Shown here: positions 7,416-37,676 of the stretch, one piece after another
How the letters are laid out: each line of letters opens with the position of its first letter
Numbering within the stretch: position 1 is the first letter of the stretch
DNA from: Propionibacteriaceae bacterium UBA7704
GTDB taxonomy: Bacteria > Actinomycetota > Actinomycetes > Propionibacteriales > Propionibacteriaceae
NCBI GenBank assembly: GCA_002482525.1
Contig: DLGC01000010.1
Span: forward strand, 10,834-74,833
DNA length: 64,000 nt
Reading direction: 5' to 3'
Translations under genes and position numbers: made by a program
Notes under the pieces: model-generated
The model's database searches: none
The model's input: the letters and a program-made list of their open reading frames with translations, nothing else
Told to the model about the DNA's origin: nothing

Positions 7416-7448
7416 TTTCACCGACTGTTCACCTTCCGTTCGGCTAAG
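7416..7448 (+). promoter_or_regulatory. PHO-box-like array of three contiguous 11-nt direct repeat units
   Basis: TTTCACCGACT (7416-7426), GTTCACCTTCC (7427-7437) and GTTCGGCTAAG (7438-7448), in the 200-bp divergent region between the kinase gene and phoU. The GTTCACC core and 11-nt period match the Streptomyces PhoP PHO box as I recall it. Confidence 0.5.
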
Positions 7449-17010: not shown

Positions 17011-18999
17011 GTGATCCTCTCCGACGGCACCCGGGCCGGATTCGCCCGCACCATAGCGCTCACCATCACCGCCCTCGCGTTAACGTTCTCCGGCACAATC
17101 CCGGCACAGGCCGACACCTCGACCCCGGTCAATGTCCCCGACGCTACGTTGCGGGCCTGCCTGACCACAGCGCTGTCCGACGCTCAACTCAGCACCGATC
17201 TCACCAATGAGAATCTGGTGCAACTCAAGAGAGTGGCCTGCTCGGCATCCCCAGACAAGCCGATCGCCAACCTGACCGGCATAGAGGCAGTTTCCGACGC
17301 TGACATCATTTTTCTGGGGCTGACAACCACCACGGATGTGTCGCCGCTATCCGGGCTCCTTGGCCTGACACAGCTAGCACTCACAGCCCCCAACCTCGAA
17401 TCCGCAGGGCCGCTGTTCCAGGTGTCCACGCTCACCGCACTCAATCTGGCCGCACCGAAGGTCACTGATCTCGATTTCCTGAGCACGATGCACGACCTCG
17501 AATACCTCGCACTCCAGGTCTCCCCCCAGGCTTCCTTCGAGAGATTCCCAGACCTGCCGTCGCTATCCAGATTCTCGCTGAACATCGACACCCCCACGCT
17601 CCCGGCACTAGTCCTACCCGCAAGCGTGACCTCCCTGACGGTGCGAGATGCGTCCCTGACTAGCTTGGTCAGCCTGCCGCAAGCGGCCGGTGCCACGTCA
17701 CTGACCGTGAGCTACGCACCGGAGCTGGCCGACCTCACCGGAGTCGAAGACCTCCCTCGGCTGCGCCAGCTCAGGCTGCCTGCTGGCAAGTACACCGACC
17801 TCACCCCGGTAAGCCAGCTCACGGCTTTGGAGGAGCTTCGAGACCCCGAGGCCGCCATTGGTGATGTGTCAGCGCTGGCATCGATGACGTCGCTGAGCAC
17901 TCTCGATCTGCATGGCAACCAGCTCACCGATCTCACCGCCCTGACCGGCCTGCCGAATCTGACGACGCTGGACGTCGCCAAGAACGGCCTCACGACGCTT
18001 GGAGCATCAGGAAGCCTGTCCCGGCTCTCCGAGCTATCTGCTTCCAGCAACAGTCTCACCTCGATCGACGCACTCACCGGCGCCCACCTCACCAGCGTCA
18101 ATCTCGACAGCAACCGTCTCACCAACGTTGCGCCCCTTGCCGCCGCAGCACCGGGAGCGTGGATCAGCATCCGGTGGAACGCATTGCGCGATCTCAGCCC
18201 CCTGCCCGACACGGCGACGGTCAACGCCTACGGACAGCAATCGATGCACCCGGGAATGGCGACGGTCGGCAAGCCTTTCGACCTGGGATTGCGCGATGTC
18301 GACGGGACACCCATCTGCCCAGACTTCGGCACTAAGGTCGCATGCACCGATGGTGCGGTTGCCTATCCGGTATCGGGCACCTATCAGGGCGAGGTCAGTA
18401 CCTCCGGCAGCAAGCTCAGCTTCAGCGTCACCCAACACGCCGGTCCCGACCGGGCGTTTGCCGCCACCTATGCCCCAACGCTGTTCGGCGAACCGATTGT
18501 CGGTATGGATGTTGTCTCCTGGGTGCGGAGTTGGTCACCGAAGGCGACCTTCACCTACCGGTGGTACCGCGATGGGAAAGCGATCACCGGTGCTGCGGCG
18601 ACCGACTTCTACTACAGGGCGGGCGTTGCCGATCTCGGACACAAGCTTTCGGTCTGCGTCATCGGTCGCTATGACGGCTTCACCCCCACGAAACGGTGCT
18701 CGACGCGCAGCAGCGCCGTCAAGAAGGGCACCTTCACCCGCATTCCCCGTCCGAAGGTCACCCACAGTGAACCGGTGAGGGTCGGCACCTCACTGGCCGT
18801 CAAGACCGGACGCTGGGACGCCGGGGTACGCCTGCATTACCAGTGGCTGCGCAACGGTCGGGTGATCAAGGGCGCAACGAAGGACACCTATCGGGTGCGG
18901 CGCGGTGATCGCCGGGATCTCATCACGGTGCGCGTCAGCGGGACGAAACGCGGCTACTACACCGAGCGTGTCATCGCAGCGTCCCACCGCGTCCGCTAG
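17011..18999 (+). CDS. Secreted internalin-like leucine-rich-repeat protein with two C-terminal Y-x-W Ig-like modules (LRR paralog 1)
   Basis: GTG start and signal peptide ending PAQA. About 22-residue LRRs (LDLHGNQLTDLTALTGLPNLTTLDVAKNGLTTL...). C-terminal modules FTYRWYRDGKAITGAAATDFYY...KLSVCV and LHYQWLRNGRVIKGATKDTYRV...ITVRVSG. Collinear with 35775..37676. Confidence 0.8.
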   Translation: MILSDGTRAGFARTIALTITALALTFSGTIPAQADTSTPVNVPDATLRACLTTALSDAQLSTDLTNENLVQLKRVACSASPDKPIANLTGIEAVSDADIIFLGLTTTTDVSPLSGLLGLTQLALTAPNLESAGPLFQVSTLTALNLAAPKVTDLDFLSTMHDLEYLALQVSPQASFERFPDLPSLSRFSLNIDTPTLPALVLPASVTSLTVRDASLTSLVSLPQAAGATSLTVSYAPELADLTGVEDLPRLRQLRLPAGKYTDLTPVSQLTALEELRDPEAAIGDVSALASMTSLSTLDLHGNQLTDLTALTGLPNLTTLDVAKNGLTTLGASGSLSRLSELSASSNSLTSIDALTGAHLTSVNLDSNRLTNVAPLAAAAPGAWISIRWNALRDLSPLPDTATVNAYGQQSMHPGMATVGKPFDLGLRDVDGTPICPDFGTKVACTDGAVAYPVSGTYQGEVSTSGSKLSFSVTQHAGPDRAFAATYAPTLFGEPIVGMDVVSWVRSWSPKATFTYRWYRDGKAITGAAATDFYYRAGVADLGHKLSVCVIGRYDGFTPTKRCSTRSSAVKKGTFTRIPRPKVTHSEPVRVGTSLAVKTGRWDAGVRLHYQWLRNGRVIKGATKDTYRVRRGDRRDLITVRVSGTKRGYYTERVIAASHRVR

Positions 19000-20669
19000 G
19001 CGGCCGGTGTCGGCGAGGGCGACGGCTGAGCGGTGACCGCCGTCGGCTCGGTGTCGACGACCAAGACCACGCCGTCGCCGACAGCCCACCGTGTCCCTGC
19101 CGCGGGCTGCGTCCTGGCGACCACCAGCGTCGGGCTGGCGTTGTCGGGCACGCTGAAACCTGTGGTGGTCAGCAGCGTCCGAGCCGCCGCCACACTCATT
19201 CCGGCGACTGGGGGCACCCGGTTGTAGCCGGTGGCGAGCGTCACATCCACAGAATCCCCCACGGCGACCGCGGTGCCGGAAGCTGGTGATTGCGCCAATA
19301 CCCGGCCGGCGGGCTCGGCGGAGTCTTTGATGCGCACTCGTCCGACCTCCAAACCGACGGCCCGGAGGGCCGCCTGCGCCGAGGCGAGGTCCCCATACAG
19401 GGCAGGGACCTGCACCTGGGCAGGGCTCGAGGCGGGCGTGTCCTTGCCGCGGGGGCTCACCGTCGGAGTCGGCGTGCTCGATGGTGTGGCACTTGCAGCC
19501 GTCGGCATCGGCATGGCTGCCAGTGAGCCCGAACCAGCCATTCCCAAACCGATCCACGCCACGACGGCAATAGCCAATGCCGCGATCAACACCGGTCCAA
19601 TCAGGCGCGCCAGGCTAGACCCGGCTTCCGCACTCGGAGTGGACGGCGGTGCCAATGTCGCCGATGGCACCGGGGCGAGGGTCTGCCGGGTCGCCGGCGA
19701 CGGGCGTTCCCACGACGCTTCCATCACCCGCGTCGGCCCATCCGTGGGACGCACCGTCACCGCAGCCAGCAGCGCCTGTCGAAACTCCTCGGCATTGGCG
19801 AAACGGCCCTCGGCAGTGGTGGCCAGGGCTTTCACCACGACCCGGTCGAGCCGCCGAGCGGACGGCAGCAACGCCGACGGCACTGGCGGCGGATCCGTCA
19901 GCCGGGCGCGGAGCGTCTCGGCCATCGTGGCACGATGAAATGGCGGCTGACCGGTCAACAGGAAGTGCAGCACCGCACCGGCCTGGTAGAGATCGCTCGC
20001 CGGCCCGACCGTGCCTCCGGATGCCTGCTCCGGTGAGAGGTATGCCACGCTGCCGACAATGGTGGTGGCCGAGCGTTGGCCGGTGGTGAGCAGCACATCG
20101 TCTCCGACCACGGTGCCGCCGGCCGCATCGGCCAGCCCGAAGTCAACCAGCCGGACTGCAGCGGCGGTGATCACCTGATCAGGTGCGACATCGTGCAGGA
20201 TCACATTGCCGGGCGCGACGTCGCGGTGTACCAGCCCGGTGTCGTGGGCTGCCTGCAGGCCGCTCAAAAGCCCATCCATGACCGCCGCCGCCTGATACGG
20301 GCCCATCGGCCCACGCTCGGCCACCCATTCGGCCACGGTGGGCCCGTCAACCGCCTCCAAGGCGATCCAGGCCCTCGGCGTCGCACCAATATCGCGCAGG
20401 CCGCTGGCATATACCGCAGCAACATTGGACTGGTTCACCTCGGCGAGGCGTCCGGCTTCACGCAGAAAGGCCTCCCGGAGCGCCTGGTTCTCACTCAGGG
20501 CCGGGTGCAGCACCTTCAGCGCGACGACCCTCGGTTGGCCCTGCGCATCGAGCTGACCGAAATCCTCACAGCGGTAGACCGCCGCGGAGCCGCCAGCACC
20601 GAGGAGCTCACCGATCTGGAACCGGCCGCCGAACAGTGTCGGCTCCGGCCCGTCGGGCGAGCTGGTCAT
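18996..20669 (-). CDS. Hanks-type Ser/Thr protein kinase with one TM segment and two extracellular PASTA domains; non-canonical catalytic loop
   Basis: Trimmed to ATG 20669 (ATGA overlap with the upstream stop). Motifs LGAGGSAAVY, VALKVL, HRDVAPGN, DFG, SPE. TM segment LIGPVLIAALAIAVVAWIGLGMAG. Two PASTA-like repeats follow (VQVPALYGDLASAQAALRAVGL..., VPPVAGMSVAAARTLLTTTGF...). Confidence 0.85.
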   Translation of the reverse strand: MTSSPDGPEPTLFGGRFQIGELLGAGGSAAVYRCEDFGQLDAQGQPRVVALKVLHPALSENQALREAFLREAGRLAEVNQSNVAAVYASGLRDIGATPRAWIALEAVDGPTVAEWVAERGPMGPYQAAAVMDGLLSGLQAAHDTGLVHRDVAPGNVILHDVAPDQVITAAAVRLVDFGLADAAGGTVVGDDVLLTTGQRSATTIVGSVAYLSPEQASGGTVGPASDLYQAGAVLHFLLTGQPPFHRATMAETLRARLTDPPPVPSALLPSARRLDRVVVKALATTAEGRFANAEEFRQALLAAVTVRPTDGPTRVMEASWERPSPATRQTLAPVPSATLAPPSTPSAEAGSSLARLIGPVLIAALAIAVVAWIGLGMAGSGSLAAMPMPTAASATPSSTPTPTVSPRGKDTPASSPAQVQVPALYGDLASAQAALRAVGLEVGRVRIKDSAEPAGRVLAQSPASGTAVAVGDSVDVTLATGYNRVPPVAGMSVAAARTLLTTTGFSVPDNASPTLVVARTQPAAGTRWAVGDGVVLVVDTEPTAVTAQPSPSPTPAA

Positions 20670-21445
20670 GACGCCGCCGCGGCGTAGTCGTTGGCGAGTC
20701 TGCGCACCCGATCCACATAATCCGAGGAGTGGTTGTAAGCCCAGATCGCGCGCGTCCAGCCCGAGGAGGTGTTCAATGCGCCGCCAGCAGCGCACAGGTA
20801 GTCGGCCGCGGTCAGCGTCGCATCGTCGATCTGATCCGGATCGGCCACGCCGTCACCACTGCCGTCGCGTCCCCACGTGCGCCAGGTCGACGGCAGGAAC
20901 TGCATCGGCCCGACCGCGCGATCCCACTGGGGGTCGCCGTCGAGGCTGCCCTGGTCGCTGTCGGTGATCCGCGCAGTGTGCCTGCCGTCCAGTCGAGGCC
21001 CGCGGATCGCCGGCTCGGCCCGGCCGGTCGCGTCCAGCACCGCGCCGTCATGGCTGCCATGGCCGGATTCCACCGCTCCGATCGCAGCCAGGGTGTTCCA
21101 GCCGATTCGGCACGACGGCTTGTCGGTGCGCAGGGCCAGATCGGCAGCCGCGTAGGCCAGCACGGCCCGTTGTGGAATGCCGGTCACGCCGGCAACGCGC
21201 TGAGCCCAGGCCGGCGACACCTGCGCCACGTCGGTTCGGCTGGGCTCGGCATCAGCCTTGGCAGGCGACGCCGCCATTGACGGCTCCACGACGACGCCGG
21301 CTTCCGAGTCAGGCCCGGACGCGACGATTGCCGAGGTGCGTGACAGGTTGACCCCCGCGAGCAACGCGACCACGATGACCGCAGCCCCCGCAACGGTCAC
21401 CACCGGACGCCACCAGCCGGCGCGCCGCTCAGCCGAATCGTCCAT
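20666..21445 (-). CDS. Membrane-anchored lytic transglycosylase (SLT_2-like)
   Basis: N-terminal TM segment. [12 protein letters not shown] carries the catalytic Glu; [14 protein letters not shown] and AYNHSSDYV follow. The start overlaps the pstB stop by 17 nt, and the stop forms an ATGA overlap with the kinase start. Confidence 0.8.
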
Positions 21446-22322
21446 TGACGTAGTCGAAGGTTCGTTCGTCGACCGGATCGGTGAACATCGCCTCGGTGTC
21501 GCCGTGTTCGACGATGACGCCCGGGGCGCCCTGCGCAGCCAGGAAGAAGGCGCACTTCTGCGATACCCGCTGAGCCTGTTGCATGTTGTGGGTGACGATC
21601 ACAATGGTGACTTCGCTGCGCAGCTCGGTCATGGTGTCCTCGATCACCCGGGTGCTGGTGGGATCCAAAGCCGAGCACGGCTCGTCCATGAGGAGCACCT
21701 TGGGCTTCACCGCCAAGGAGCGGGCGATACACAGCCGCTGCTGCTGGCCACCGGAGAGGCCACCGCCGGGCTGACGAAGCCGGTCGCGGACCTCTTTCCA
21801 CAGCCCCGCCGAGGTCAACGAGCGCTGCACGATCTCGTCTTTCTCGTCGCGCCCGGCTCGGCGTCCGGTGAGCTTCAGACCGGCGATGACGTTGTCGTAG
21901 ATGCTCATCGCCGGGAACGGGTTCGGCTTCTGGAAGACCATGCCGATGTCTTTGCGGGCGTCGGTGAGCTTGCGATCTCGGTCGTAGATGTCATCGCCGT
22001 CCAGGAGCACCTCCCCGGCCATGCTGGCCGAAGGGATCAGCTCGTGCATCCGGTTGAGGATCCGCAGGAAGGTGGACTTTCCACAGCCCGAGGGGCCGAT
22101 GAGCGCGGTGACCTCTCCGGCCGGCATGACCAAGGAGACCCGATCCAAGACCTTGTGGGACCCGAACCAGGCCGACACCGAGCGGGCGTCGATGCTGGAC
22201 AGCTGACGCACGTCCGCAGTCGGGACCGACGACTGGAGGGGAACCGTCTCGGTCACCGCCGACGCCTCGTCGGGCTCGACGAGACGTCGGAGCGATTCCC
22301 GCAGCGGAGCGGAGTTGGTCAT
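21429..22322 (-). CDS. pstB: Phosphate ABC transporter ATP-binding protein
   Basis: Walker [20 protein letters not shown], signature LSGGQQQR, Walker [13 protein letters not shown], and the PstB-type C-terminus [12 protein letters not shown] 22322 has an AAGGA SD. An alternative ATG at 22370 would form an ATGA overlap with the upstream stop. Confidence 0.9.
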
Positions 22323-22366
22323 CAATGGATCCTTATCAGGGGCGAAATCGTTGGGTAGGGGCAGGC

Positions 22367-23356
22367 TCATAACAGGTTCGGCAAGGTGTCGACGATCAAC
22401 GTGGTGGCGATGACGCCGGCCGCGAGCAGCACCGGCGCCCCGATCAGCCAGGCCCAACGCCAACCCCAGCGTCGCCACAGCCACGCCGTCGCGCCGATGA
22501 GGGCAGCCAACGCCACGGTCGCGGCGATCGCCAGCGGCCAGCCGGACGCATCACTTCCCAGGGCACGTTCCTCACTCGGCAGCGCCGGGTAGGTCAACAC
22601 CCGGGCCGAAGCTGGCTGCACGGTCGTGGATTGGGTGGCGTCGATGTACAGCACACCGGTGGGGAACAGCGGCGGTCCGTCGGCGGTGATGAGTTCGAGG
22701 CGGCCTTCGCCGGCAGCGCCGTCGGCCGGTAGCGGATCACCGGCGCGGCGCAGCCCGAAGACGGTGTAGCCGGCCACCCCTTGCCCGGTGGTCACCGTCA
22801 GGGTGTCGCCGGGCTGAAGCCGTCCCAGATTCGCGAAGGGCCCGCCGTAGCTGGTCTGGCGCCCCATGATCACCGAGGTTCCCGCCTGCCCGGGCATCAC
22901 AGTGTCGCGCCGGTGACCGGGGCCTGAGCGCAGCACGGCCGCGGTCGTTCCTTCCCGGATGACCTCCGAGAGGCCCAGCCGCGGAATCTGCAGCAAGGCC
23001 ACCGGAGTGCCCGCCTCGACCAGGTCGCCGTTGACATCCAACTGCCCGACCGGGGTTTCACCCTTGGCCAGTGACGAGCGCAGCTCGTCGTAGCCGTCGA
23101 CCAGATCGCGTTGATGCTGCAGGCCGGAGAACACCACCGCCTGAGCGAAGAAGCTCAGCAGCAGCACCGAAATCGCAGTGATCGCCACCCCGGCTGCCCA
23201 CCGGGCGTCCCGGGGTGCCAGCGGACGCGGCGGCTTGGGCTTGGGATAGCGGACTCGGCGCCACCAGGCCAACAGGCGGGCTCGCACCGTGATGCGCACC
23301 GGTTTGGTCTGCTCATCGTCGTGCACCGGTGGCAGAGCGGTAAGAGTTCCGGTCAC
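22367..23356 (-). CDS. Sortase-fold membrane protein lacking the catalytic His and Cys (predicted pseudo-sortase)
   Basis: GTG 23356 forms a GTGA overlap with the upstream stop. Collinear with class E sortases as I recall them: [34 protein letters not shown] (expected ..GHR..), [14 protein letters not shown] (expected L.L.TC). No Cys anywhere in the 329 aa. One N-terminal and two C-terminal TM segments. Confidence 0.7.
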
Positions 23357-23976
23357 GATTCCTCCTGTCCGTGGCGCTGCCAGAGCTGGACGGCGAGCCA
23401 TCCCACCGATGCGAGCACGACGATGCCGGCCGCGAGTGCGGCCCAGCCGACCCAGGAGGGGTAGGCCGTGCCCGGCCAGGTGCCGGCGCCGATGCGTCCG
23501 ACGAGGAGTCGTCCCACGGCGACTCGATTTGCGCACCAGCCGGTGAACTGCACGGTGTGCCAGCCGGCGAGCGCGGATTCGGGGACGGTGAGGTCGACGC
23601 GGATTCGGCCCTTGCGGTCGGCGATCACCGTCTTCGGTGCGCCGCCGGTGCCATAGAGCACGACCTGGACCTTCTCCTTGGCTGTGAATCCGGTGGCGCG
23701 AGCCTGGGTTCGACCGCCGGCAGCGACGACGGGCTCGGTGAAGGTGACCGGAGCACCGGTGCTGGCCGGCTGGGGTTGAAGCTGTGGTTTGGCACTGCAG
23801 TGAGTGCTGGTGCTGGGGGCGTCACTGGCCGGTTCGGCGGGCTGACGAGGGCTGTCGGCGACAGCGGAGGTCGCCACGACGGCGGCCAGCAGCAGCGCAG
23901 CAACGGCCACCGCCAGTGCGGTGGCCACCGTCGAACCGATCCGTCGGCTCGACGTCAACAGAACCTGCCAACTCAT
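23353..23976 (-). CDS. Small secreted protein with a beta-sandwich-like domain and a C-terminal TM anchor
   Basis: GGAGGTGA SD. Signal peptide ending SAVA-DSP and a Pro/Gln-rich linker. Domain FTAKEKVQVVLYG...GRIRVDLTVPE...GWHTVQFTGWC, then the C-terminal helix WVGWAALAAGIVVLASVGWLAV. Confidence 0.6.
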   Translation of the reverse strand: MSWQVLLTSSRRIGSTVATALAVAVAALLLAAVVATSAVADSPRQPAEPASDAPSTSTHCSAKPQLQPQPASTGAPVTFTEPVVAAGGRTQARATGFTAKEKVQVVLYGTGGAPKTVIADRKGRIRVDLTVPESALAGWHTVQFTGWCANRVAVGRLLVGRIGAGTWPGTAYPSWVGWAALAAGIVVLASVGWLAVQLWQRHGQEES

Positions 23977-24047: not shown

Positions 24048-25691
24048 TCACTTGACCTTGAGCGTCAGCGTGCGCGAGGAGCTCGCCACGCCGGTGCTGC
24101 CGGAGTAGGTGATCTTCATCTTGTGCTTGCCCTTGGACAGCTTCTTGGTCAGCTTGACGGTGACGATGCCCTTCTTGGAGGTGGTCACCTTGGCGCTACC
24201 GACCTTCTTCTTGCCGTCATAGACGTTCACAGTTCCGGTCGGAGCGGTCACACCGGACGCGGTGACGGTGATCTTCACCTTGCCCTTCTTGGCGTGCTTC
24301 TTGGCGTTCTTGTCGAAGCTGGCCTTGACCGAGGAGCTGATCTTGGCGACTGCAACCTTGGCGGTGGTGGCCGACGCGGAGACCGAACCGGCGTTGGCGA
24401 CGATCGCGACCGAGATCGAGGTGCCGGCATCAGCGGCGGTCAGCTTGTAGCTGGCAGCGGTGGCGCCGGTGATGGTCGCACCGTTACGCATCCAGCGGTA
24501 GCTGAACGTCGGCTTGGTGACGGTTCCGGTCCAGGTGCCCGCGAAGGCGGTGAGGGTGGAACCGACCTTGGCCGAACCGTTGATGCGAGGAGCCGCGGTG
24601 GCGGTGAGCATCGGCGTAGATCCGTCGACGACGAAGCCGGCCTTCTGGGTGGTGGTACCACAGCCGGAGCCGAGGTCGCCGAAGCCGTACTCGTGGATGA
24701 CGGCCACCTGCGAGCAGACCGCGGAGGTCTCACCGACGAAGGTGGACTGCAGCAGCTTGTCGGCGTCGCTGGTGCCACTCAAACGGTCGGTGGACACCAC
24801 GTTGTACACATTGCGCGTCACCGAGAACGCAGTGTTCAGGGTGCCATCGCCCAGGATCGGATCGGAACCGGCGATCTTGCCCAGGATCACCTTGTTGGCG
24901 CCGACGGTGTTGGTGACGACCCCGTTGGTCTGCGCGATGTAGGCCGCAACCGAGAAGGGTGCGATCTCGCCGACAGCATCAATCGTGGTGCCTTCATTCT
25001 CCTGGAAGGTGGTGGTGATCCACGCAACCTGAGTCTCAGACAGGCCCAGGGTCTTCAGGAAGAAGGAGCGGCTGCCCGAACCCGTCTGCGGCAGCAGCGG
25101 GACGTAGTTGTGGCTCAACCCGTCGGTACCGGTGTAGCTGGTCGTTGTGCCGTCGAAGATGGCGGTCAACTGGGCCACGGTCAGATCCGAGGGCACCGCG
25201 GCTGCCGAGTCGGTGTTGGAGTAGGCGTAGCTCAGCGCATCCTTGGCGAAGGGGATGAAGGTGAGATCGGTACCGGCAGCCGAGGGCCCGCTCGACGAAC
25301 GCGAGTAGTCCAACTGGCCGGTGATGTCGACGCCGTTCGCCGCCGGGTAGGTCAGGCCCTTGATGGATGAGGTGAGCGCCTTCTGTCCGGAGCCCGATCC
25401 GTTCGGGCGAGTGAAGGGCAGGCCGTCCGCGCGGGTCTGGATGAGGTCGCCAGGCAGACCGGTGGTCGGATTGACGGCATCGTAGGAGCCGAGAATCTTG
25501 TTGCCCGAGCCGTCCTTGATCGCGTCAGCCATCCCATTCATTACCGACTGGGTGGTGTCGCTGCCGACACCGACCAGGGGCCGGTAGGTGGGCGTGCCCG
25601 AAGGGTCGGCGTAAGCGGGTGCCACGCCGAAGGCCACCGTGCACGCGAGTGCACCGGTGAGCACGCTGAGAGCCAGCTTGTTGGCTTTCAT
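24048..25691 (-). CDS. Secreted PstS-superfamily (PBP type 2) protein fused to a Y-x-W module and a bacterial Ig-like domain
   Basis: Trimmed to ATG 25691 (AAGGGAG SD). Signal peptide ending PAYA. PBP motifs VGVGSDTTQ, NGSGSGQKAL, LPQTGSGSRSFF. Then FSYRWMRNGATITGATAASYKLTAADAGTSISV and a Lys-rich Ig-like C-terminus (KVKITVTASG...KMKITYSG). No membrane anchor. Confidence 0.75.
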   Translation of the reverse strand: MKANKLALSVLTGALACTVAFGVAPAYADPSGTPTYRPLVGVGSDTTQSVMNGMADAIKDGSGNKILGSYDAVNPTTGLPGDLIQTRADGLPFTRPNGSGSGQKALTSSIKGLTYPAANGVDITGQLDYSRSSSGPSAAGTDLTFIPFAKDALSYAYSNTDSAAAVPSDLTVAQLTAIFDGTTTSYTGTDGLSHNYVPLLPQTGSGSRSFFLKTLGLSETQVAWITTTFQENEGTTIDAVGEIAPFSVAAYIAQTNGVVTNTVGANKVILGKIAGSDPILGDGTLNTAFSVTRNVYNVVSTDRLSGTSDADKLLQSTFVGETSAVCSQVAVIHEYGFGDLGSGCGTTTQKAGFVVDGSTPMLTATAAPRINGSAKVGSTLTAFAGTWTGTVTKPTFSYRWMRNGATITGATAASYKLTAADAGTSISVAIVANAGSVSASATTAKVAVAKISSSVKASFDKNAKKHAKKGKVKITVTASGVTAPTGTVNVYDGKKKVGSAKVTTSKKGIVTVKLTKKLSKGKHKMKITYSGSTGVASSSRTLTLKVK

Positions 25692-25841
25692 TCGAATCTC
25701 CCTTAGAGTTTCAGTTTCGGACAACCTTCTGGCTGCCTCGAACTCCCCCATCCCGAGTAATGCTTTCCACGGCTATCGGGATGGGGGTTCTTCCGTTCCA
25801 CGGCTGGTGCCGAAGCGGGAAGTTGTAGGGGCTGCGTCGAC

Positions 25842-28562: not shown

Positions 28563-30202
28563 AGCGTTGTCCTTCCGCGTGATCTTCGCGATCGGCGACG
28601 CACGAGCATCGGCGGCAGCAATACCGCAACCGCCACCAGCAGCCCCGCCGACACCATCGAGGCGTAGGCGGCCGGCGTCGGCCGAGCGAGGGGAATGGAC
28701 ACCGGGACACCCGCCACCTGGCCTTGGGGCGCTGACAGTTCTGAACCGGCTGCGATCTCGCTTCCGGTGCCTTGGGCCGCGCCTGCCTGAGCGGCGCTGC
28801 TTGCTGCCGCACCGCTGCCGGTGCCCGTCCCCGAACTGCCTGAGGCGGAGGATCCCGGGGTGGTGGACGTTTGTTTTGCGCCGCCGGTGCCGGAGGTGCA
28901 CTGGGTGGGCCCCTTCTTGTCACACGCGGCCGGATAGGGCGCGGTCTGGGCCAGTTTGTTCGCCCCGGAGGCCGAGAAGGTCGGATTGTGGCAATCCGAG
29001 ATCCCCTTGATCACCGGGTCGCCGCCCGGAATCTTCTGGATCTGGCTTTGTCCGGCCTTGACGAGGTTGATCGGCAGCGGAGAGTAGCCCAGTACCTCGG
29101 CAGACTGTTGGCCTTCGCACAGGAAGTAGGCCCCGAAGTCAGCGAGCGTGCGGCCTTTGTCGAGAGTGAACCCGTTTTGGGTCGACGTCGGCAGGATGAT
29201 GTAGGAGTAGCTCGACAGCGGATAGGTGCGCTTGTCCTTGTCGGTGTAGACCCCGTTCAGGTTCTGGGTGAGGTAATCCACCGAGTTCTTGTCGGTGTTG
29301 ATGCGCGCCTTCAGCAGCGCGACCGCGACGTTCTGCGCAGTGGGTTCGGTGTAGTAGCCGGCAGCGTTGAGGACTTTGGCCACCGGAAAGCCGGAGTTCA
29401 GCGCATAGGAATACTCGACGAAGGTGATCGCGCCCACGGCATGGGGCTGCGCAACGTAGCCGGCCACCCCATTCGACCCGGAGCGGGAGACGAAGCCCGA
29501 TCCGGGGGCCACCGGATAGTTCGAGGTCACGCCGCAGTGCCCGCTGACCAGCGGACGCCCCACCTTGCCACAGTAGGCATCCCAGTACTTCGGGTACATC
29601 TGGCGCAGCCAGATCGACACCTGTGCGGTCGCGCCGGAGCCGTCGGAGCGCACCACCGGCACGATGGGGATGGCGGGAAGATCCAGCAGCGGGTTGTCTG
29701 CCTTGATCGCCGGATCGTTCCAGCGAGTGATCGAACCGGTGAAGATCTGCGCGATGGTAGTGCCGGACAGCCGCAGATTGGTGACCCTCTTGCCGCCGAT
29801 CACCAGGTTGTACATGAAGGCGGTTCCACCGGCCACGATCGGCATGTACGCATACGGCCGTAAGGGGCGGGTGTCCTTCTCGTTGGAGTTGGAGATCGCA
29901 TAGGGAATCTCGCTGACCCCGAAGTCGGCGGTGCCGTTGGCGAAGTCGGTGCGTCCGATGGTCGATCCGGATTCCGAATAGGTGATCTTCCACTGGTAGT
30001 TGGCCCACACGTTGCGGATCCACGCCTGCAGGGCGTTGGCAGACCAGGTGGAGCCCGATCCCACGATCGGGGCATGGATACCAGACGCCTGGGCAGGCGT
30101 GACGGCGGTCAGGCCGGTGAAACCAAAGCTGATCAGCGTAAGGCCGGTAACCACAGCGACCATCCGCCACCACTGGGGGTGTGACCCCATCCTCGTACTC
30201 AT
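28559..30202 (-). CDS. pstS: Phosphate-binding protein PstS homolog with signal peptide, low-complexity linker and C-terminal TM anchor (no lipobox)
   Basis: IVGSGSTWSANAL, ESGSTIGRTDF, VRSDGSGATAQ, GAITFVEYSYAL and YPLSSYSYIILP are collinear with E. coli PstS as I recall it. The signal peptide ends AQA-SG and has no Cys. C-terminus is AGLLVAVAVLLPPMLVRRRSRRSRGR. ATGA overlaps at both ends. Confidence 0.85.
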   Translation of the reverse strand: MSTRMGSHPQWWRMVAVVTGLTLISFGFTGLTAVTPAQASGIHAPIVGSGSTWSANALQAWIRNVWANYQWKITYSESGSTIGRTDFANGTADFGVSEIPYAISNSNEKDTRPLRPYAYMPIVAGGTAFMYNLVIGGKRVTNLRLSGTTIAQIFTGSITRWNDPAIKADNPLLDLPAIPIVPVVRSDGSGATAQVSIWLRQMYPKYWDAYCGKVGRPLVSGHCGVTSNYPVAPGSGFVSRSGSNGVAGYVAQPHAVGAITFVEYSYALNSGFPVAKVLNAAGYYTEPTAQNVAVALLKARINTDKNSVDYLTQNLNGVYTDKDKRTYPLSSYSYIILPTSTQNGFTLDKGRTLADFGAYFLCEGQQSAEVLGYSPLPINLVKAGQSQIQKIPGGDPVIKGISDCHNPTFSASGANKLAQTAPYPAACDKKGPTQCTSGTGGAKQTSTTPGSSASGSSGTGTGSGAAASSAAQAGAAQGTGSEIAAGSELSAPQGQVAGVPVSIPLARPTPAAYASMVSAGLLVAVAVLLPPMLVRRRSRRSRGRTTL

Positions 30203-31440
30203 CCCGACCCGACCGCCTCCGAGCCGGAGATACCGGCACGTTCACGCCCGAGGAAGCGCCGCAGATCGCGAGCCGAAGCCCGTTGAGCGCGCGCTAAGCC
30301 CCGCTCGGTGAGGACGCCTGGTCCGCGTCCCCCCAGCAGGCGGGCAAGCATGAATAACACGAAGACCAGCACCATCAGTACGGCGGCGGCGCCGAAGCCG
30401 CGCGCGATCTGGGTGGGTTCGGGGCTCTTCACCAAGGTGAAAGTCGCAAACGGCAGCGAGGTCATCGGACCGGAGAAGGGGTTGAGATTGAAGAAGGTGG
30501 TGTAGCCGGCGGTGAGCAACACCGGACTGGTCTCGCCGATGCCGCGGGCGGTGCCGAGCACTACCGCGGTCATGAGTCCGGAGCGCGCCGTGGGGAGGGT
30601 CACATGCCACACGGTGCGAAGCCGGCTGGCACCGGTGGCCAGTGCCGCCTCTTTCAGGGTGGCCGGAACCAGTCGCAGCACGACATCGGCCGAGCGGATG
30701 ATGATCGGCAGGATCATGATGGTCACGGCCAAGGCTGCGGCGAAGCCGGACTTGTCCAGGCCGAACATGAGCACGTAGGTGGCCAGAATGAACAGCCCGC
30801 AGATGATGCTCGGCAGCGCGGTCATGGCCTCCACCACGGTGCGCAGCACTCGGGTGAACCGGGAGGGAAACTCCGCCATGCAGACCGCAGCGAGCAGCCC
30901 CAACGGGATGGAGATCGCCAACGCGATCGCGATCATGATCAAGGTGCCCACGGCGGCGTGCGCCATGCCGCCGACACTCAACGGATCCAAGGGTCCGGCC
31001 AGGGAGAGATCCTGAACCCAGAAGTTCCACTGGCTGAAGGCCGCCGACCCTCGAATGAGGGCGAACACCACGACCAGGATCAGCGCCAGCAGCAAGGTGA
31101 CGGCCGCAGAGTGGATCACCACTGCGATGATGCGGTCCTGCACCGTGACCCGATCAGCGTCCAAGCTGACCATCACCGCGTAGAGCCCGACGAAAAGCAG
31201 ATAGGCGATCGCGACGAAACCGACCGGGCTGTCAATCGGCAGCACCTGAGTGGTGAGCCAGTAGGTGATCGCCACCGCAGCGAGGGCGGCACCGACGATT
31301 CGCACTATGTCATCGGCTCGGATTCCCGACAGCGGACGGCGAATCTGCCCGGCGGCATCGGTGGTGACCTCCTCCGAGCGCACCTGGGTGCGGGCACCGA
31401 TACTCGCCAGTCCGGTCGAGGCGTTCAGCCGATCGCTCAT
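30199..31440 (-). CDS. pstA: Phosphate ABC transporter permease PstA
   Basis: Multi-TM permease with GGMAHAAVGTLIMI...IPLGLLAAVCMAEF and the EAA-like loop ALATGASRLRTVWHVTLPTA. Second permease of the pair. Confidence 0.85.
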   Translation of the reverse strand: MSDRLNASTGLASIGARTQVRSEEVTTDAAGQIRRPLSGIRADDIVRIVGAALAAVAITYWLTTQVLPIDSPVGFVAIAYLLFVGLYAVMVSLDADRVTVQDRIIAVVIHSAAVTLLLALILVVVFALIRGSAAFSQWNFWVQDLSLAGPLDPLSVGGMAHAAVGTLIMIAIALAISIPLGLLAAVCMAEFPSRFTRVLRTVVEAMTALPSIICGLFILATYVLMFGLDKSGFAAALAVTIMILPIIIRSADVVLRLVPATLKEAALATGASRLRTVWHVTLPTARSGLMTAVVLGTARGIGETSPVLLTAGYTTFFNLNPFSGPMTSLPFATFTLVKSPEPTQIARGFGAAAVLMVLVFVLFMLARLLGGRGPGVLTERGLARAQRASARDLRRFLGRERAGISGSEAVGSG

Positions 31441-31444
31441 GACG

Positions 31445-32485
31445 TCAGCTCGCCGCCCCGGATCGGGACCGTTGGATCAAGGCGCCGGCTGCGAAGTTGA
31501 TTCCCATGGTGATGATGAACAACACCAACCCGGCGGCCATCAAGGCAGACAGTTCGAACTGCGACGCCTCGCCGTTGCGCAGAGCGATCAGAGCCGACAC
31601 CGAGTTCGACCCGGTCGTCAGCACCTGCCAGTTGATGACGAAGACCGGACTGATCACCAGGTAGACCGCGATGGTCTCCCCCAGTGCCCGGCCCAGGCCG
31701 AGCATGGTGCCGCCGACGATGCCTCCGAAACCGAAGGGGTAGACGACGGTGCGGATCATTCCCCATTTGCTCGAACCCAGGGCGAGCGCGCCTTCGCGTT
31801 CGCCGACCGGCGCCTGGGTGAAGACCTCACGCATGATAGAGGCTGCGATCGGGGCCACCATCATGGCCACCACCAGGCCTGCGATGAGCGCGCTGGCGGT
31901 GAACACCGTCGGGGTGGCCAGCGGATCGTCGGGATTGAACTGCGGCGCGGCGAAGATGGGGATCCACCCCAGATAGGTGCTCAACCATTGCGCCACCGGC
32001 AGCACCTGGCCTTCTAGCCAGAACATTCCCCACAGTCCATAGACCACGCTGGGAATGGCGGCCATCAGGTCCACCACGCCAACCAGGAGTCCACGCAGGT
32101 GTTTGGGGGCGTATTCGGAGATGTAGGTGGCTGTGCCCAGCGCCAACGGGAGGGCCACGGCGATCGCGATCACCGCAATGGTCACGGTTCCGAAGAGGAC
32201 CGCCGCAATCCCGAAGCGGTGCGAGTTCGGCTCCCAGGCCTGTTCGGTGAAGAAGGAGAATCCGGCCGCTGACACCGCCTCCGCACCACGCACGGCCAGG
32301 AACAGCCCGACCAAGGTCATTAACAGCAGTACCGCGACGCCGCCGCCGTGGGTGACGATGCCGAAGGCACGATCCGAGCCACCCAGCCGTGCCGTGATCG
32401 CCCTGGGCGAATCCGGTTGCGGACGCACGACGACCTCCGGTTCGGGTGGACGTGCCACCTGACCCAGCACCGCGGGGTTCGGCAT
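31445..32485 (-). CDS. pstC: Phosphate ABC transporter permease PstC
   Basis: Multi-TM permease with FGIAAVLFGTV...LPLALGTATYISEYAP and EGALALGSSKWGMIRTVV. First gene of the chain; 4-nt gap to pstA. Confidence 0.85.
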   Translation of the reverse strand: MPNPAVLGQVARPPEPEVVVRPQPDSPRAITARLGGSDRAFGIVTHGGGVAVLLLMTLVGLFLAVRGAEAVSAAGFSFFTEQAWEPNSHRFGIAAVLFGTVTIAVIAIAVALPLALGTATYISEYAPKHLRGLLVGVVDLMAAIPSVVYGLWGMFWLEGQVLPVAQWLSTYLGWIPIFAAPQFNPDDPLATPTVFTASALIAGLVVAMMVAPIAASIMREVFTQAPVGEREGALALGSSKWGMIRTVVYPFGFGGIVGGTMLGLGRALGETIAVYLVISPVFVINWQVLTTGSNSVSALIALRNGEASQFELSALMAAGLVLFIITMGINFAAGALIQRSRSGAAS

Positions 32486-32927
32486 CCAGTACTCCTGCTT
32501 TCCGTGCGGCCCCGCGATTGCGAGTCCGACGGCGTCAGCGTGCCAAAGGCGTCGCTGTCACCGTCGCGAGCTAGGTATCGGAATGCCCCGTGTCAGATGA
32601 ACACCAGGAAACCGCTAACCCTCGGTCAGCGTCGCGCCGCGGTGCGGGCACGGGCACCACAGGCCTGCAGCAGCCGGGAAGACGGCTTAGTCGCCCCGCA
32701 GCGCACGAGCCGAGCCGATCCGTTAAGACGAACTGATGAGTTGGATGAAGTTGCCCTGAGAATTCATCCATTCGGACGATAAGTCCCCCGCGAGGAGACG
32801 CCACCATCACCGCATTGCCATGCGGGGATCACCGTCTGGACAACTGCCAGCCATCTGGTGTTGACGTCGCCGTGTCACCATTCGAGTCGAGGCCCTGCGT
32901 TCCTGGCCGAGCGAAAGGCAGGTCGGT

Positions 32928-33644
32928 GTGATCCGGGTGGTCCTCGGTGACGACAATCTTCGACAGCGCAGAATGCTGCGTCAGCATCTGGAGGAATCCG
33001 GCGACATCGTGGTGGTCGGCGAGGCCGGCACGCACGAGGCGGTTCAGTTGCTGGCTCGGAATCGGCGTCCACACGTTGTACTCACCGACGTACTGTTGGC
33101 CGGCAAGCCCGGCCTGGCCACCATTCGGGCGCTGACCGCGCCGCAGCCGGCCCGTGCGGTGGGCGTCATGGTGCTCACCTCCCACCGAAACCACGCCCGA
33201 GCGATCGATGCCCTCGATTGTGGCGCGATCGCCTTCCTGACCAGACCGATCAACAATGCCGACCTGGCATCGTTCGTGCGGGCTGCCGCTGCCGGCCAGG
33301 TACTGCTCTCGGCCACCGTCACCACCGCGATCCGCACCGAATTAGTGGCTCGCGGAGCGATGCTGTGGGGTGATCGGGATCCGATCACCGACCTGCTCAC
33401 CGCTACCGAACTCAGCGTGGTGGCCCTGCTGTGCTCAGGCTTGACCACCAACGAGGCGATCGCCGAGCAGCACCATGTGAGCGTCAACACCGTGCGATCC
33501 CAGTTGCAGCGGTGTCTACGCAAGACAGGCTTGAGTGATCGCACCCAACTGGCGCTGTGGGGGGTGCGGCACGGCCTGGGTCAGCCGAGCCGTCCTACGC
33601 CGCCACTCTCACCGGATCTGCTCGCGCTGCCGGATTCGGGGTAG
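32928..33644 (+). CDS. NarL/LuxR-family response regulator, orphan and atypical
   Basis: GTG start. Receiver motifs VVLGDDN, VVLTDVLL, VLTSH, but AFLTRP where K-P is expected. C-terminal LuxR HTH LTATELSVVALLCSGLTTNEAIAEQHHVSVNTVRSQL. No adjacent kinase gene. Confidence 0.75.
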   Translation: MIRVVLGDDNLRQRRMLRQHLEESGDIVVVGEAGTHEAVQLLARNRRPHVVLTDVLLAGKPGLATIRALTAPQPARAVGVMVLTSHRNHARAIDALDCGAIAFLTRPINNADLASFVRAAAAGQVLLSATVTTAIRTELVARGAMLWGDRDPITDLLTATELSVVALLCSGLTTNEAIAEQHHVSVNTVRSQLQRCLRKTGLSDRTQLALWGVRHGLGQPSRPTPPLSPDLLALPDSG

Positions 33645-35774: not shown

Positions 35775-37676
35775 GTGAGGGTGGTTCATCGGTCGCCACG
35801 ACAACGGACGCGTCCAATTCTCATTGTCATCGCACTGTGTTTCGCCATGCTCGGCATCGGACCTGCGCCTGCCCATGCCGCGAATACAGTGCTCATCCCC
35901 GATCCGGCTCTTCGAAGCTGCGTACAAAACGAGCTGCAAGCGCACAGCATTTCGACCGAACTCACTGACGAGAACCTCGCGGCACTCCCATCCATCTCAT
36001 GCTCAGCGACGCGTGACGGCACTATTGCCAGTCTCGCCGGGTTGGAAAACCTGGCCAACGCTGATCAAGTCTCGCTTCCCGCAACAACGGTGTCGAATCT
36101 CACTGCACTGACCACACTGCCGAAGCTGACGACACTGTCGTTGGCGAGCACGACGCTGACCGATGGTTCGACGCTTGGCCAGCTGACTCAACTCACAGTC
36201 CTGCACCTGGATACACCGCAGCTCGGGAACGTCGGTTTCCTCTCCGAGCTCAGCCACCTGCGGGGCTTGAGACTGAAGGTTGCTGCCACGGCGTCAATGG
36301 CCCCGATTGCGCAGCTCGCCGATTTGTACTCTCTCTATCTCACTGTGCAAACGCCACAACTCCCGGAACTCACTCTGCCGCCGAGCGTACGAGCCCTGGG
36401 GGTTCTGGGAACATCTCTCACCACCGTGAACGCGTTGCCCAACGCAAGCCACGTCACGACCCTCGTCCTCGACCAGACTCGCAAGCTCGTCGAGCTCGAC
36501 GGGTTGGAAGGACTCTCGGGACTCACCACTCTCTACATCGGCGAAGGTAGCTTTCGCGACCTGCATCCGTTGACGTCGCTGACATCACTCACCAAACTGC
36601 GTGCCAACAACGGTGTGGTCGATGACCTCTCAGGCTTGGCCAACCTAACGCAGTTGACCACGCTCGAACTGGCGAACAACGACATCAGCGATCTCACGCC
36701 GCTGGCCGAACTGATCAATCTGAGCTACGTCAAGCTATCGGACAATCGTGTTTCTGATGTGACCGCTCTGGCCGGTGTTGCGCCCGACGCTACCGTCCAA
36801 CTGAGCGGCAATCGTCTGCGTGACCTCAGCCCGTTACCCGATGGCGCAACGGTGTACGCACTGAACCAGGCCACGCTGAAAGCGCCCGCCGCGACGGTCG
36901 GCGTCCCCTTCGACCTCGGCTTGCGAGCGGTTGATGGAACTCCACTGTGCCCGTCGTATCGGCAGAGTGCGCAGTGCGATGCCGGTCGAGTTAGCTATCC
37001 GCAATCAGGCACCTATGCCGGCACCGCTGTCTCCGCCGATGGCAGATTCCGGGTTGAAGTGTCACAGTATGCGGGCCCTGACCGGCCCTTCGAAGCGACG
37101 CTTCGTCCCAAAGTTGAAGGAACACCGCTGGTCGGACGCGTCTTGAGTTCGTCCTACCCGACGTGGATTCCGTACCCGGACACCGGGAGCTTCCGCTGGT
37201 ATTCGGGAGGCAAGGCGATCACCGGCTCTCTCGGAGCGGGGCAGACCTATCGGCTCCGTACTTCCGATGTCGGCAAACGCGTTCACGTCTGCTACACCGC
37301 CTCCCGAGACGGCTTCATCACGACGCAAGCGTGTTCGGCTCCCACCCTGGCCGTCCACAGCGGCGACATCTACTCGACGGCTCGCCCCACCATCAAGCGG
37401 AAACGCTACGGCAGGTTGGGCGTCGTGCTCGAGGGTAGGTTCAACGCCAATCGCTGGGACCCCGGGGTCGTGTTCCACTACCAGTGCTACCGCAACGGCA
37501 AACGAGTACGGCATTACAAGGGCGCCACCGAGAGAGGCCCCGTGTCCATCGGCTTCCTCACACGGCGCGACGTGGGCGCCCGCTACGAACTGCGGGTCAA
37601 AGCCACCAAGCCCGGCTGCCGCCCTGTCGTGGTCTACTCCAAGACCTTCCGCGTGAAGAAGTCCACCCTGCGCTGA
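35775..37676 (+). CDS. Secreted internalin-like LRR protein (LRR paralog 2)
   Basis: GTG start and signal peptide ending PAHA. Same architecture as 17011..18999: cap (IPDPALRSCV...STELTDENL), 22-residue LRRs, and two C-terminal Y-x-W modules (FRWYSGGKAITG..., FHYQCYRNGKRV...). Confidence 0.8.
   Translation: MRVVHRSPRQRTRPILIVIALCFAMLGIGPAPAHAANTVLIPDPALRSCVQNELQAHSISTELTDENLAALPSISCSATRDGTIASLAGLENLANADQVSLPATTVSNLTALTTLPKLTTLSLASTTLTDGSTLGQLTQLTVLHLDTPQLGNVGFLSELSHLRGLRLKVAATASMAPIAQLADLYSLYLTVQTPQLPELTLPPSVRALGVLGTSLTTVNALPNASHVTTLVLDQTRKLVELDGLEGLSGLTTLYIGEGSFRDLHPLTSLTSLTKLRANNGVVDDLSGLANLTQLTTLELANNDISDLTPLAELINLSYVKLSDNRVSDVTALAGVAPDATVQLSGNRLRDLSPLPDGATVYALNQATLKAPAATVGVPFDLGLRAVDGTPLCPSYRQSAQCDAGRVSYPQSGTYAGTAVSADGRFRVEVSQYAGPDRPFEATLRPKVEGTPLVGRVLSSSYPTWIPYPDTGSFRWYSGGKAITGSLGAGQTYRLRTSDVGKRVHVCYTASRDGFITTQACSAPTLAVHSGDIYSTARPTIKRKRYGRLGVVLEGRFNANRWDPGVVFHYQCYRNGKRVRHYKGATERGPVSIGFLTRRDVGARYELRVKATKPGCRPVVVYSKTFRVKKSTLR

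Follow-up and report, generated by a model that had tools for sequence, protein, structure and literature searches.

On the minus strand of a 64,000-nucleotide stretch of Propionibacteriaceae bacterium UBA7704 (contig DLGC01000010.1, positions 10,834 to 74,833; hereafter the window), an operon that resembles those of Pst-type ATP-binding cassette (ABC) importers carries a gene for a relative of the sortases. Sortases are textbook cysteine transpeptidases that staple proteins to Gram-positive cell walls, and they are drug targets. The protein encoded here, which we call the pseudo-sortase, contains no Cys among its 329 residues, and by alignment all three catalytic residues of a sortase are replaced in it, namely His by Arg166, Cys by Ala225 and Arg by Val235. 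In minus-strand order the locus comprises pstC, pstA, a PstS-like binding protein with a C-terminal membrane anchor (PstS-anch), a giant PstS-fold protein of 906 residues (X906), a secreted PBP-like protein with a Big_3_5 domain, a 207-residue anchored protein, the pseudo-sortase, pstB, an SLT-domain lytic transglycosylase and a Ser/Thr kinase (Table 1).

The pseudo-sortase: gene, fold and catalytic positions

The gene starts with a GTG codon at 23356, with a GGAGGA Shine-Dalgarno sequence close 5' of it, and since homologues of 329-334 amino acids begin at the same MTGT..., a longer open reading frame (ORF) of 389 codons is not the gene. An earlier, sequence-only reading of the window had named the two substituted positions Arg226 and Ala285, counting from an upstream GTG at 23536; its codon coordinates stand, but in the 329-residue product the residues are Arg166 and Ala225. 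The same reading had claimed that the protein is free of Cys, as translation of ORF 22367-23356 (-) confirms, and that its gene is start/stop-coupled to that of the upstream anchored protein, which is indeed the case, as the start overlaps the stop of ORF 23353-23976 through GTGA. It had also placed the gene directly before pstB, to which we add an overlap that it had not reported, as the TGA stop runs into the ATG at 22370 through ATGA. This ATG opens the pstB-like gene, which accordingly extends over 21429-22370. The two overlaps tie the upstream partner, the pseudo-sortase and pstB together, and the translational coupling with pstB suggests co-production with the transporter.

The Pfam model Sortase (PF04203) scores 54.1 bits over residues 122-203 (E=1.7e-14, against a cut-off of 26.6 bits), covering model positions 1-83 of 125 and no further, and among the sortase classes of NCBIfam the class_E_sortase model (NF033747) scores best, starting at residue 57, with 70.6 bits, which is under its cut-off of 160. 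A sequence search of the PDB returned sortases only (best E=4.6e-11), namely 5uus (C. diphtheriae SrtF), 5go5 (S. avermitilis SrtE), 4d70 (C. perfringens SrtD) and 5cuw (S. coelicolor SrtE1). An AlphaFold2 (AF2) model based on 64 homologues has a mean predicted local distance difference test score (pLDDT) of 86.1 and a predicted TM-score (pTM) of 0.75, and it consists of a long helix (51-98), a beta core (118-242) and a helical hairpin (270-324). A Foldseek search of the PDB with this model gave sortases at each of the first 50 ranks; normalised to the target, the TM-score is 0.74 for CpSrtD 4d70 and 0.72 for SrtE 5go5. Judged from sequence and model together, the outer domain of the pseudo-sortase is a class-E-type sortase fold with the eight-stranded beta-barrel of sortases, and it descends from a class-E-type sortase. 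The sequence-only reading had taken the protein as sortase-like in fold and collinear with class E sortases; the fold is confirmed by the Pfam homology found with HMMER and by the match to 5go5, and collinearity holds at the level of hidden Markov models to about residue 203-255, whereas for the C-terminal third it rests on the fold and the MAFFT alignment.

Three hydrophobic segments were detected by Kyte-Doolittle analysis and in the AF2 model (residues 51-80, 270-294 and 301-329), in agreement with the one N-terminal and two C-terminal transmembrane (TM) segments read from the sequence before. Beyond the first, TM1, the helix runs on into a conserved juxtamembrane stretch that reaches about residue 98. 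The N-terminus has 12 basic (K/R) versus 4 acidic (D/E) residues, and TM2 and TM3 are joined by the basic turn WRRWGWRW, so that by the positive-inside rule the C-terminal tail should lie outside, beside the sortase-like domain. The predicted topology is therefore N-terminus inside, TM1, extracellular sortase-like domain, TM2-TM3 hairpin and C-terminus outside, and the protein has, as class E sortases do, an N-terminal membrane anchor with the domain outside.

Within this fold, the HMMER alignment to four class E/D structures places Arg166 on the His of vAGHRrtYGdPF. Alignment of the family with class E sortases by hhalign remained local, reaching residue 200 only (probability 97.3), and could not place the Cys and Arg columns; these columns were therefore assigned from the strand positions of the AF2 model and from a joint L-INS-i alignment that included genuine class E sortases. 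In the AF2 model the Cys column closes strand 218-225 and the Arg column opens strand 235-242, the strand positions at which sortases carry their catalytic Cys and Arg (PMC5148588). The GCC codon of Ala225 is two changes away from TGC. In the Arg column the window protein has Val235, or Gly234 if aligned without a gap, and two residues further it has Tyr237, a position that is Arg in many other clades. The substitution of both His and Cys, and the lack of a counterpart of the catalytic Arg after the ITAD strand, thus appear as the sequence-only reading had described them. A catalytic His or nucleophile elsewhere was considered and rejected, as the window protein is without Cys and as His148 is the non-catalytic His of the GH motif, common to true sortases.

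Relatives of the pseudo-sortase are present in at least 384 actinobacterial species, according to a scan of one genome per species, and belong to Micrococcales, Propionibacteriales, Bifidobacteriaceae metagenome-assembled genomes (MAGs), Nanopelagicales, Streptomyces, Kitasatospora, Micromonosporaceae, Amycolatopsis, Jiangella and others; the closest among the matches listed comes from Propionibacteriaceae MAG UBA8946 (98% identity). At E<=1e-30, an exhaustive profile search retrieved 479 sequences, each representing a cluster at 50% identity. Arg166 is found in 64/64 and Ala225 in 63/64 of the homologues underlying the model, and across 85 genomic loci the His position is Arg throughout (85/85) and the Cys position Ala, Gly, Val or Thr. 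Among the best 150 of the 479 representatives, the His position is Arg in 146 and Lys in 4 and never His, while the Cys position is taken by Ala (109), Ser (19), Thr (8), Val (6) or Gly (5) and never by Cys. Arg or Lys thus occupies the His position in all of roughly 300 family members examined, so that the substitutions first read from a single gene are fixed at the His position and Cys is nowhere restored.

Conservation is concentrated in the same domain. Averaged by column over 84 distinct sequences, conservation reaches 0.70 in the sortase core and 0.95 in the last five residues, whereas the TM helices score 0.47-0.57 and the N-terminus 0.11. The core holds 33 of the 45 columns conserved at 95% or more and is under strong purifying selection. 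With the core and the last five residues being the most conserved parts, the ectodomain is functional and under constraint, and the loss of catalysis is, as far as can be told from the sequences, ancient and selected rather than decay. Seven polar residues near the former active-site strands are invariant (H148, R150, D151, R166, T224, D226 and D239). The C-terminus reads L-P-N-[LVMI]-x in 85/85 loci and in about 145 of the 150 representatives, with Pro326 and Asn327 invariant, and the LPNLL end of the window protein resembles a sorting pentapeptide in outline. Public databases annotate members of the family as 'sortase', 'sortase A' or 'class E sortase'; as the protein lacks every catalytic residue and remains below the class E cut-off, it should not be filed as a sortase enzyme.

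The operon, its receptors and their sorting signals

PstC and PstA exceed the cut-offs of their NCBIfam equivalog models, and PstB (338 vs 343.2) and PstS (191 vs 205) narrowly miss theirs. The synteny is obligate: in a tblastn survey of loci, the order is pstC-pstA-PstS-anch-X906-(1-3 PBP/Ig genes)-pseudo-sortase-pstB wherever flanks exist, pstB is immediately downstream of the pseudo-sortase gene in 82/85 loci (the contigs of the remaining three stop there), and the reverse approach from X906 homologues led to the same cluster, pseudo-sortase included, in 2/2 loci (Streptomyces and Raineyella). The SLT and kinase genes come after pstB in most Micrococcales and Propionibacteriales loci; clusters of Streptomyces, Micromonosporaceae and Nanopelagicales lack them.

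The operon encodes three PstS-fold proteins. PstS-anch can be aligned from end to end with PstS proteins of known structure (E=1.7e-27) and carries a signal of the signal peptidase I (SPase-I) type (AQA/SG) without a lipobox, and a C-terminal TM helix instead. According to alignments with 8ods and others, it keeps the phosphate-ligand motifs GSGSTW, SGSTIG and RSDGSG, and has DFGVSE for DFGASD and GSGA for GSGT; in E. coli PstS numbering, by which the residue roles are assigned here, these changes are Asp56 to Glu and Thr141 to Ala. X906 had no match in Pfam, NCBIfam or single-sequence PDB searches. A profile of 16 orthologues matches M. tuberculosis PstS-1 (E=3.6e-10), and an AF2 model (pLDDT 81.7) matches PstS structures at TM-scores of 0.76-0.79, with large insertions in the PstS fold and six invariant Cys in an N-terminal beta domain. 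This family of 800-900 residues is widespread in Actinobacteria, including many Streptomyces, and is unannotated, being called 'hypothetical' or 'PBP domain-containing'.

Apart from the missing pentapeptide, the C-termini of PstS-anch and X906 are built like cell-wall sorting signals, with an extended low-complexity linker, a single hydrophobic helix and a tail rich in Arg. Such a tail had previously been ascribed to the 23353-23976 product as well; the description holds for the two receptors but not for this smaller protein, whose end is weakly basic (QRHGQEES). In nearly all of 49 tails with a placeable TM end, the TM helix of PstS-anch ends in PP-[LIVF]-[LIVF] and basic residues come next; about 30 residues upstream of the helix end, at fixed spacing, there is a conserved juxtamembrane motif V-x-[AG]-x-P-x-x-[LI] (VAGVPVSI in the window, VNA[TS]PQSL in Micrococcales and VxGVPV[SA]L in Micromonosporaceae). 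Many X906 orthologues, chiefly from Micrococcales, have [AGS]P[FLIV]L[LM]RRR at the end of the helix. The PstA-like permease has an N-terminal extension of about 100 residues relative to the family model, and PstB one of about 60; these extensions could contact the cytoplasmic PP-LL-RR and PFLLRRR ends of the receptor anchors.

The 64-kb window encodes no LPXTG or LAXTG protein and no genuine sortase. The earlier statement that the co-encoded anchored proteins are devoid of these motifs therefore holds for the window, although related clusters do encode such proteins beside the gene. In 12-17 related loci, canonical LAxTG/LPxTG proteins are found directly upstream of the pseudo-sortase (in Micromonosporaceae, Streptomyces, Amycolatopsis, Jiangella, Allonocardiopsis, Actinophytocola and one Cryobacterium subclade), with signals that read LASTG, LALTG, LANTG, LAQTG, LPRTG, LPVTG or LPTTG and are followed by a hydrophobic stretch and RRRR. 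In Micrococcales this slot is filled by the family of the 207-residue protein, which has two conserved Cys and the sequence FTGWC, and remnants of the motif are found in some of these slot proteins (GGSLADTG in locus L003 and SLASTG in locus L036) and not in the window. Clusters whose pseudo-sortase has Arg237, on strand beta-8, carry LAxTG/LPxTG proteins more often than others (12/20 vs 6/41; Fisher p=6e-4, ignoring shared ancestry), a correlation that is at most suggestive.

Table 1. Features of the pseudo-sortase and of its operon, with positions in the window.
Feature	Position	Strand	Basis or remarks
Pseudo-sortase gene	22367..23356	(-)	329 aa; Pfam, NCBIfam, AF2, Foldseek, hydropathy
TM1 (residues 51-80)	23117..23206	(-)	Kyte-Doolittle profile, AF2 helix 51-98
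Sortase-fold core (residues 113-242)	22631..23020	(-)	Pfam and PDB alignments, Foldseek, column conservation
Arg166 codon CGC, at catalytic-His position (AGH motif, after strand beta-4)	22859..22861	(-)	HMMER and joint alignment
Ala225 codon GCC, at catalytic-Cys position (TLxTC motif, end of strand beta-7)	22682..22684	(-)	L-INS-i: GR-LELITA/D on GRYLTLTTC/D
Val235 codon, at catalytic-Arg position, start of strand beta-8	22652..22654	(-)	L-INS-i: TGV/LYIDATQ on SHR/LIVWAHL
Trp-rich TM2-TM3 hairpin (residues 270-324), cytoplasmic turn WRRWGWRW	22385..22549	(-)	AF2, hydropathy
C-terminal pentapeptide LPNLL, predicted outer membrane face	22370..22384	(-)	Family alignments
pstC-like permease	31445..32485	(-)	TIGR02138 238.3 vs cut-off 196.45
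pstA-like permease	30199..31440	(-)	TIGR00974 197.7 vs cut-off 193.45
PstS-anch, PstS-like binding protein, 547 aa	28559..30202	(-)	SPase-I signal, ~100-aa linker, juxtamembrane GVPVSIP, C-terminal TM ending LPPMLVRRRSRR
X906, giant PstS-fold protein, 906 aa	25842..28562	(-)	N-terminal beta domain, long linker, C-terminal TM ending GPFLLRRRR
Secreted PBP-like protein, C-terminal Big_3_5 immunoglobulin (Ig) domain, no anchor	24048..25751	(-)	Pfam
Upstream partner, 207 aa	23353..23976	(-)	Signal/TM segment, linker, two-Cys Ig-like domain (FTGWC), Trp-rich C-terminal TM
PstB-like ATPase	21429..22370	(-)	N-terminal extension ~60 aa
SLT-domain lytic transglycosylase	20666..21445	(-)	Pfam; Micrococcales and Propionibacteriales clusters only
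Ser/Thr kinase with PASTA domain	18996..20795	(-)	Micrococcales and Propionibacteriales clusters only

Downstream of pstB, the ORFs of the SLT transglycosylase and the PASTA kinase (18996-21445 (-)) overlap. On the other side, a LuxR/NarL-type response regulator (32928-33644 (+)) is divergent from pstC, and a Raineyella cluster (L087, 2769-4705) has a response regulator and a HisKA_3 kinase at the same upstream position; the response regulator upstream of pstC may be a dedicated regulator of the cluster. The region 5' of pstC (32486-32830) is unusually long, with about 340 nt, and an Rfam scan of the window, this leader included, gave no match. A PHO-box-like triple direct repeat of the GTTCAC type with 11-nt spacing is present at 7416-7443 (+) (TTTCACCGACT GTTCACCTTCC GTTCGG), between 6223-7344 (-) and 7545-8210 (+), that is, between phoU and a divergent phoR/phoP-like pair. 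Across the window, GTTCAC repeats at this spacing occur at chance level, the triple in the phoU/phoRP intergenic region being the sole convincing one, and none is found upstream of the Pst-like cluster (32486-32900), which may therefore not be under PhoP control. Two paralogous leucine-rich repeat (LRR) proteins (LRR_4 / EndoS-type LRR) flank the cluster at 17011-18999 (+) and 35775-37676 (+). Among the other loci, Streptomyces sp. NBC_00872 (L079, 1-20813) has two tandem clusters, the second pstC-pstA-PstS-X906-PBP series following right after the first pstB, and a MAG labelled Synechococcus sp. UW140 (L041) has a complete actinobacterial-type cluster on its contig, which is probably mis-binned rather than a cyanobacterial occurrence.

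Possible roles of a sortase without catalytic residues

Of the explanations that we weighed, we tentatively place first, although we would not call it probable, that the pseudo-sortase is a non-catalytic accessory subunit that holds the tail-anchored receptors at the transporter, a role and a set of partners that we infer. The sequence-only reading had likewise proposed binding or scaffolding of sorting-signal-like C-termini, and we hold that proposal with the same reserve. According to this scaffold model, the substrate-capture half of sortase function would have been kept and the chemistry lost. The ectodomain would lie on the membrane surface, anchored at both ends, and being tied to the membrane in this way it would sit where sorting signals emerge. 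There it might grip the juxtamembrane segment of the anchored PstS-fold receptors, while the Trp-rich hairpin would pack against their TM helices, and the receptors would thereby be kept beside the PstCA permease by a protein that may be produced together with PstB via translational coupling. In favour of a capture role, the pseudo-sortase always co-occurs with two receptors that have a signal peptide, a C-terminal TM helix and a basic tail. The conserved juxtamembrane and helix-end motifs of these tails fit such a role too, as do the genuine LAxTG/LPxTG proteins encoded beside the pseudo-sortase in other lineages. A history that fits is that a Pst-like operon captured a class-E-type sortase together with its LAxTG substrate gene, and that catalysis was lost at the root of the family and the protein was then retained as part of the transporter system.

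Several observations weigh against the scaffold model. Synteny shows association with the transporter and not with the receptor tails. The PP-phi-phi-RR and PFLLRRR motifs are located at the cytoplasmic helix end, beyond the reach of the ectodomain, and we do not claim the juxtamembrane motif of PstS-anch as a relative of LPXTG, as its Pro and spacing (x-P-x-x-[LI]) alone are conserved. The groove itself has changed: the conserved class E Tyr of the beta3/beta4 loop, which in SrtE1 (Tyr229, GHY) recognises the Ala of LAXTG, is replaced by Arg149 (GHR), a position that across the 150 representatives is R in 90, L in 23, Q in 12 and another residue in the others. Of the four SrtE1 sorting-signal subsite residues compared, Ala249 and Ile215 are likewise changed, to Met164 and Thr137, and Leu221 (Leu142) is the sole one kept. 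In the joint alignment, class E enzymes have about 9 residues more in the beta6/beta7 loop than the pseudo-sortase, whose canonical peptide groove may therefore be remodelled or filled. Finally, the LAxTG signal of the neighbour has been lost in the window's own clade, where the pseudo-sortase is still highly conserved, and LAxTG binding therefore cannot be the universal function.

A bolder version, which we regard as doubtful, sees in the protein an 'iSortase', that is, a sortase turned receptor for uncleaved sorting-signal-like anchors, which would couple the PstS-fold receptors to the importer and would carry LPNLL as a displaceable built-in pseudo-substrate. If this were true, it would be the first sortase homologue working without chemistry, it would add a new class of accessory subunit to the ABC importers, and it would point to a non-covalent, sortase-derived organisation of surface proteins in Actinobacteria. 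LPNLL might also be a permanent ligand that fills the protein's own groove, turning the pseudo-sortase into a rigid membrane-surface subunit of the PstCAB-like complex, or into a latch displaced in the transport cycle. The near-universal L-P-N-[LVMI]-x end described above, its LPxTG outline, its placement outside by the positive-inside topology and the tethering of the domain to the membrane at both ends all speak for such a self-liganded module, which we nonetheless consider rather unlikely, as the AF2 model reaches a pLDDT of only 67 for the last block, the polarity of LPNLL relative to the membrane is the reverse of that of a real sorting signal, and peptide binding by the altered groove is putative. 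It seems unlikely as well that the pseudo-sortase binds the LAxTG/LPxTG signals of its cluster uncleaved and either shields them from a housekeeping class E sortase or presents them to it: proteins with such a signal, a TM helix and RRRR are encoded directly upstream in at least 12 loci and correlate with Arg237, but most Micrococcales, Propionibacteriales and Nanopelagicales clusters, the window included, are without the motif, the pseudo-sortase is at least as conserved there, and the alanine-recognising Tyr of class E is replaced.

Sortases naturally bind lipid II, and the site for this second substrate, whether lipid II or the cross-bridge of peptidoglycan, might have been kept, in which case the domain would position the transporter in the cell wall or report the state of the wall, maybe together with the SLT protein and the PASTA kinase. 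In the window, as in most loci of Micrococcales and Propionibacteriales, the genes of both come after pstB, which is consistent with this idea; it is nevertheless improbable, since Streptomyces, Micromonosporaceae and Nanopelagicales clusters lack both genes and keep the pseudo-sortase. We likewise give very little weight to a cryptic enzyme with a new catalytic set, for example Thr224, Asp226, Asp239, His148 or Arg166, acting on a peptide or phospho-ligand. The invariant polar residues around the former active-site strands and the Ser or Thr at the Cys position in 27/150 representatives might suggest such an activity; against it, most members carry Ala, Gly or Val where the nucleophile would be, none has His as the general base, H148 and T224 are conserved in true sortases too and are non-catalytic there, and we know of no precedent. 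The opposite extreme, an evolutionary relic in which the TM helices alone matter or the whole gene is decaying, with the sortase domain as a passenger, would account for the loss of all catalytic residues but is scarcely credible. The family extends over at least 384 species and 479 clusters (50% identity), its ORFs are intact and its substitutions fixed, and the most highly conserved region is the sortase core, with the TM helices among the least conserved. A cationic phosphate-binding groove was also considered and dropped, as the ectodomain has a net charge of -6 (15 K/R vs 21 D/E) and position 149 varies across the family.

Relation to known systems and significance

Class E sortases (SrtE1 5cuw, SrtE 5go5 and SrtF 5uus) are the nearest sequence family, with 5uus and 5go5 as the top PDB sequence matches, and share with the pseudo-sortase the N-terminal TM segment with its juxtamembrane helix, the beta-barrel fold and the motifs L..G.GH, PG..G, G-x-x-x-YG.PF and GR.L.L.T-x-D. 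Unlike them, the pseudo-sortase has its catalytic triad replaced, Arg149 in place of the S3-subsite Tyr and the shorter beta6/beta7 loop, and it adds two C-terminal TM helices and the invariant LPNLL end; its gene belongs to an ABC-importer operon and does not lie beside chaplin- or adhesin-type substrates. C. perfringens SrtD (4d70) is the best structural match (Foldseek E=4e-11, TM-score 0.74, root-mean-square deviation 3.8 over 164 columns) and also the best PDB profile match, with 22% identity to the pseudo-sortase, but CpSrtD is an active Cys transpeptidase with one TM segment, whereas the pseudo-sortase has three and is without catalytic residues.

The operon itself can be compared with the canonical phosphate importer PstSCAB (E. 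coli 9k3s/9k3x; M. tuberculosis PstS-1 1pc3), as PstC and PstA pass the equivalog models and PstS-anch keeps most ligand motifs. It departs from the canonical system in its order pstC-pstA-pstS...pstB with four extra genes inserted, in a receptor anchored by a C-terminal TM helix and not by lipid, in the two extra PstS-fold proteins and the pseudo-sortase, and in having no PHO-box-like repeat upstream. FtsEX-EnvC/PcsB, in which a catalytically dead LytM or CHAP-type factor is coupled to an ABC complex, offers a parallel, namely a pseudo-enzyme ectodomain tied genetically, and for the pseudo-sortase presumably also physically, to an envelope ABC ATPase and permease; FtsEX, however, is a type VII mechanotransducer without binding proteins, while the pseudo-sortase operon has PstC/PstA-type permeases and PstS-fold receptors. 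Inactive rhomboids (iRhoms and Derlins) are dead membrane proteases that keep TM and juxtamembrane client recognition to hold or traffic single-pass proteins. The logic proposed here is the same by analogy, with unrelated fold and organisms, and client binding, which has been demonstrated for iRhoms, is what we infer for the pseudo-sortase.

A full-text search of the literature for pseudo-sortases, for sortases without the catalytic Cys and for sortases with pstB or PstS retrieved no description of a catalytically dead sortase family, and a 2026 Actinoplanes survey listing 'all five sortase candidates' does not include the pseudo-sortase family. The public 'sortase' labels predict an activity that pseudo-sortases can hardly have, and the family deserves a model of its own, so that its members are no longer counted as active sortases in surveys of sortases and their substrates. 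What emerges is a large family that is locked into an uncharacterised Pst-like importer operon. If the scaffold idea were true, the pseudo-sortase would be a bacterial counterpart of the inactive rhomboids, it would account for binding proteins that have sorting-signal-like tails instead of lipid anchors, and it would turn the way in which thick-walled Actinobacteria present receptors to an importer into a testable question.

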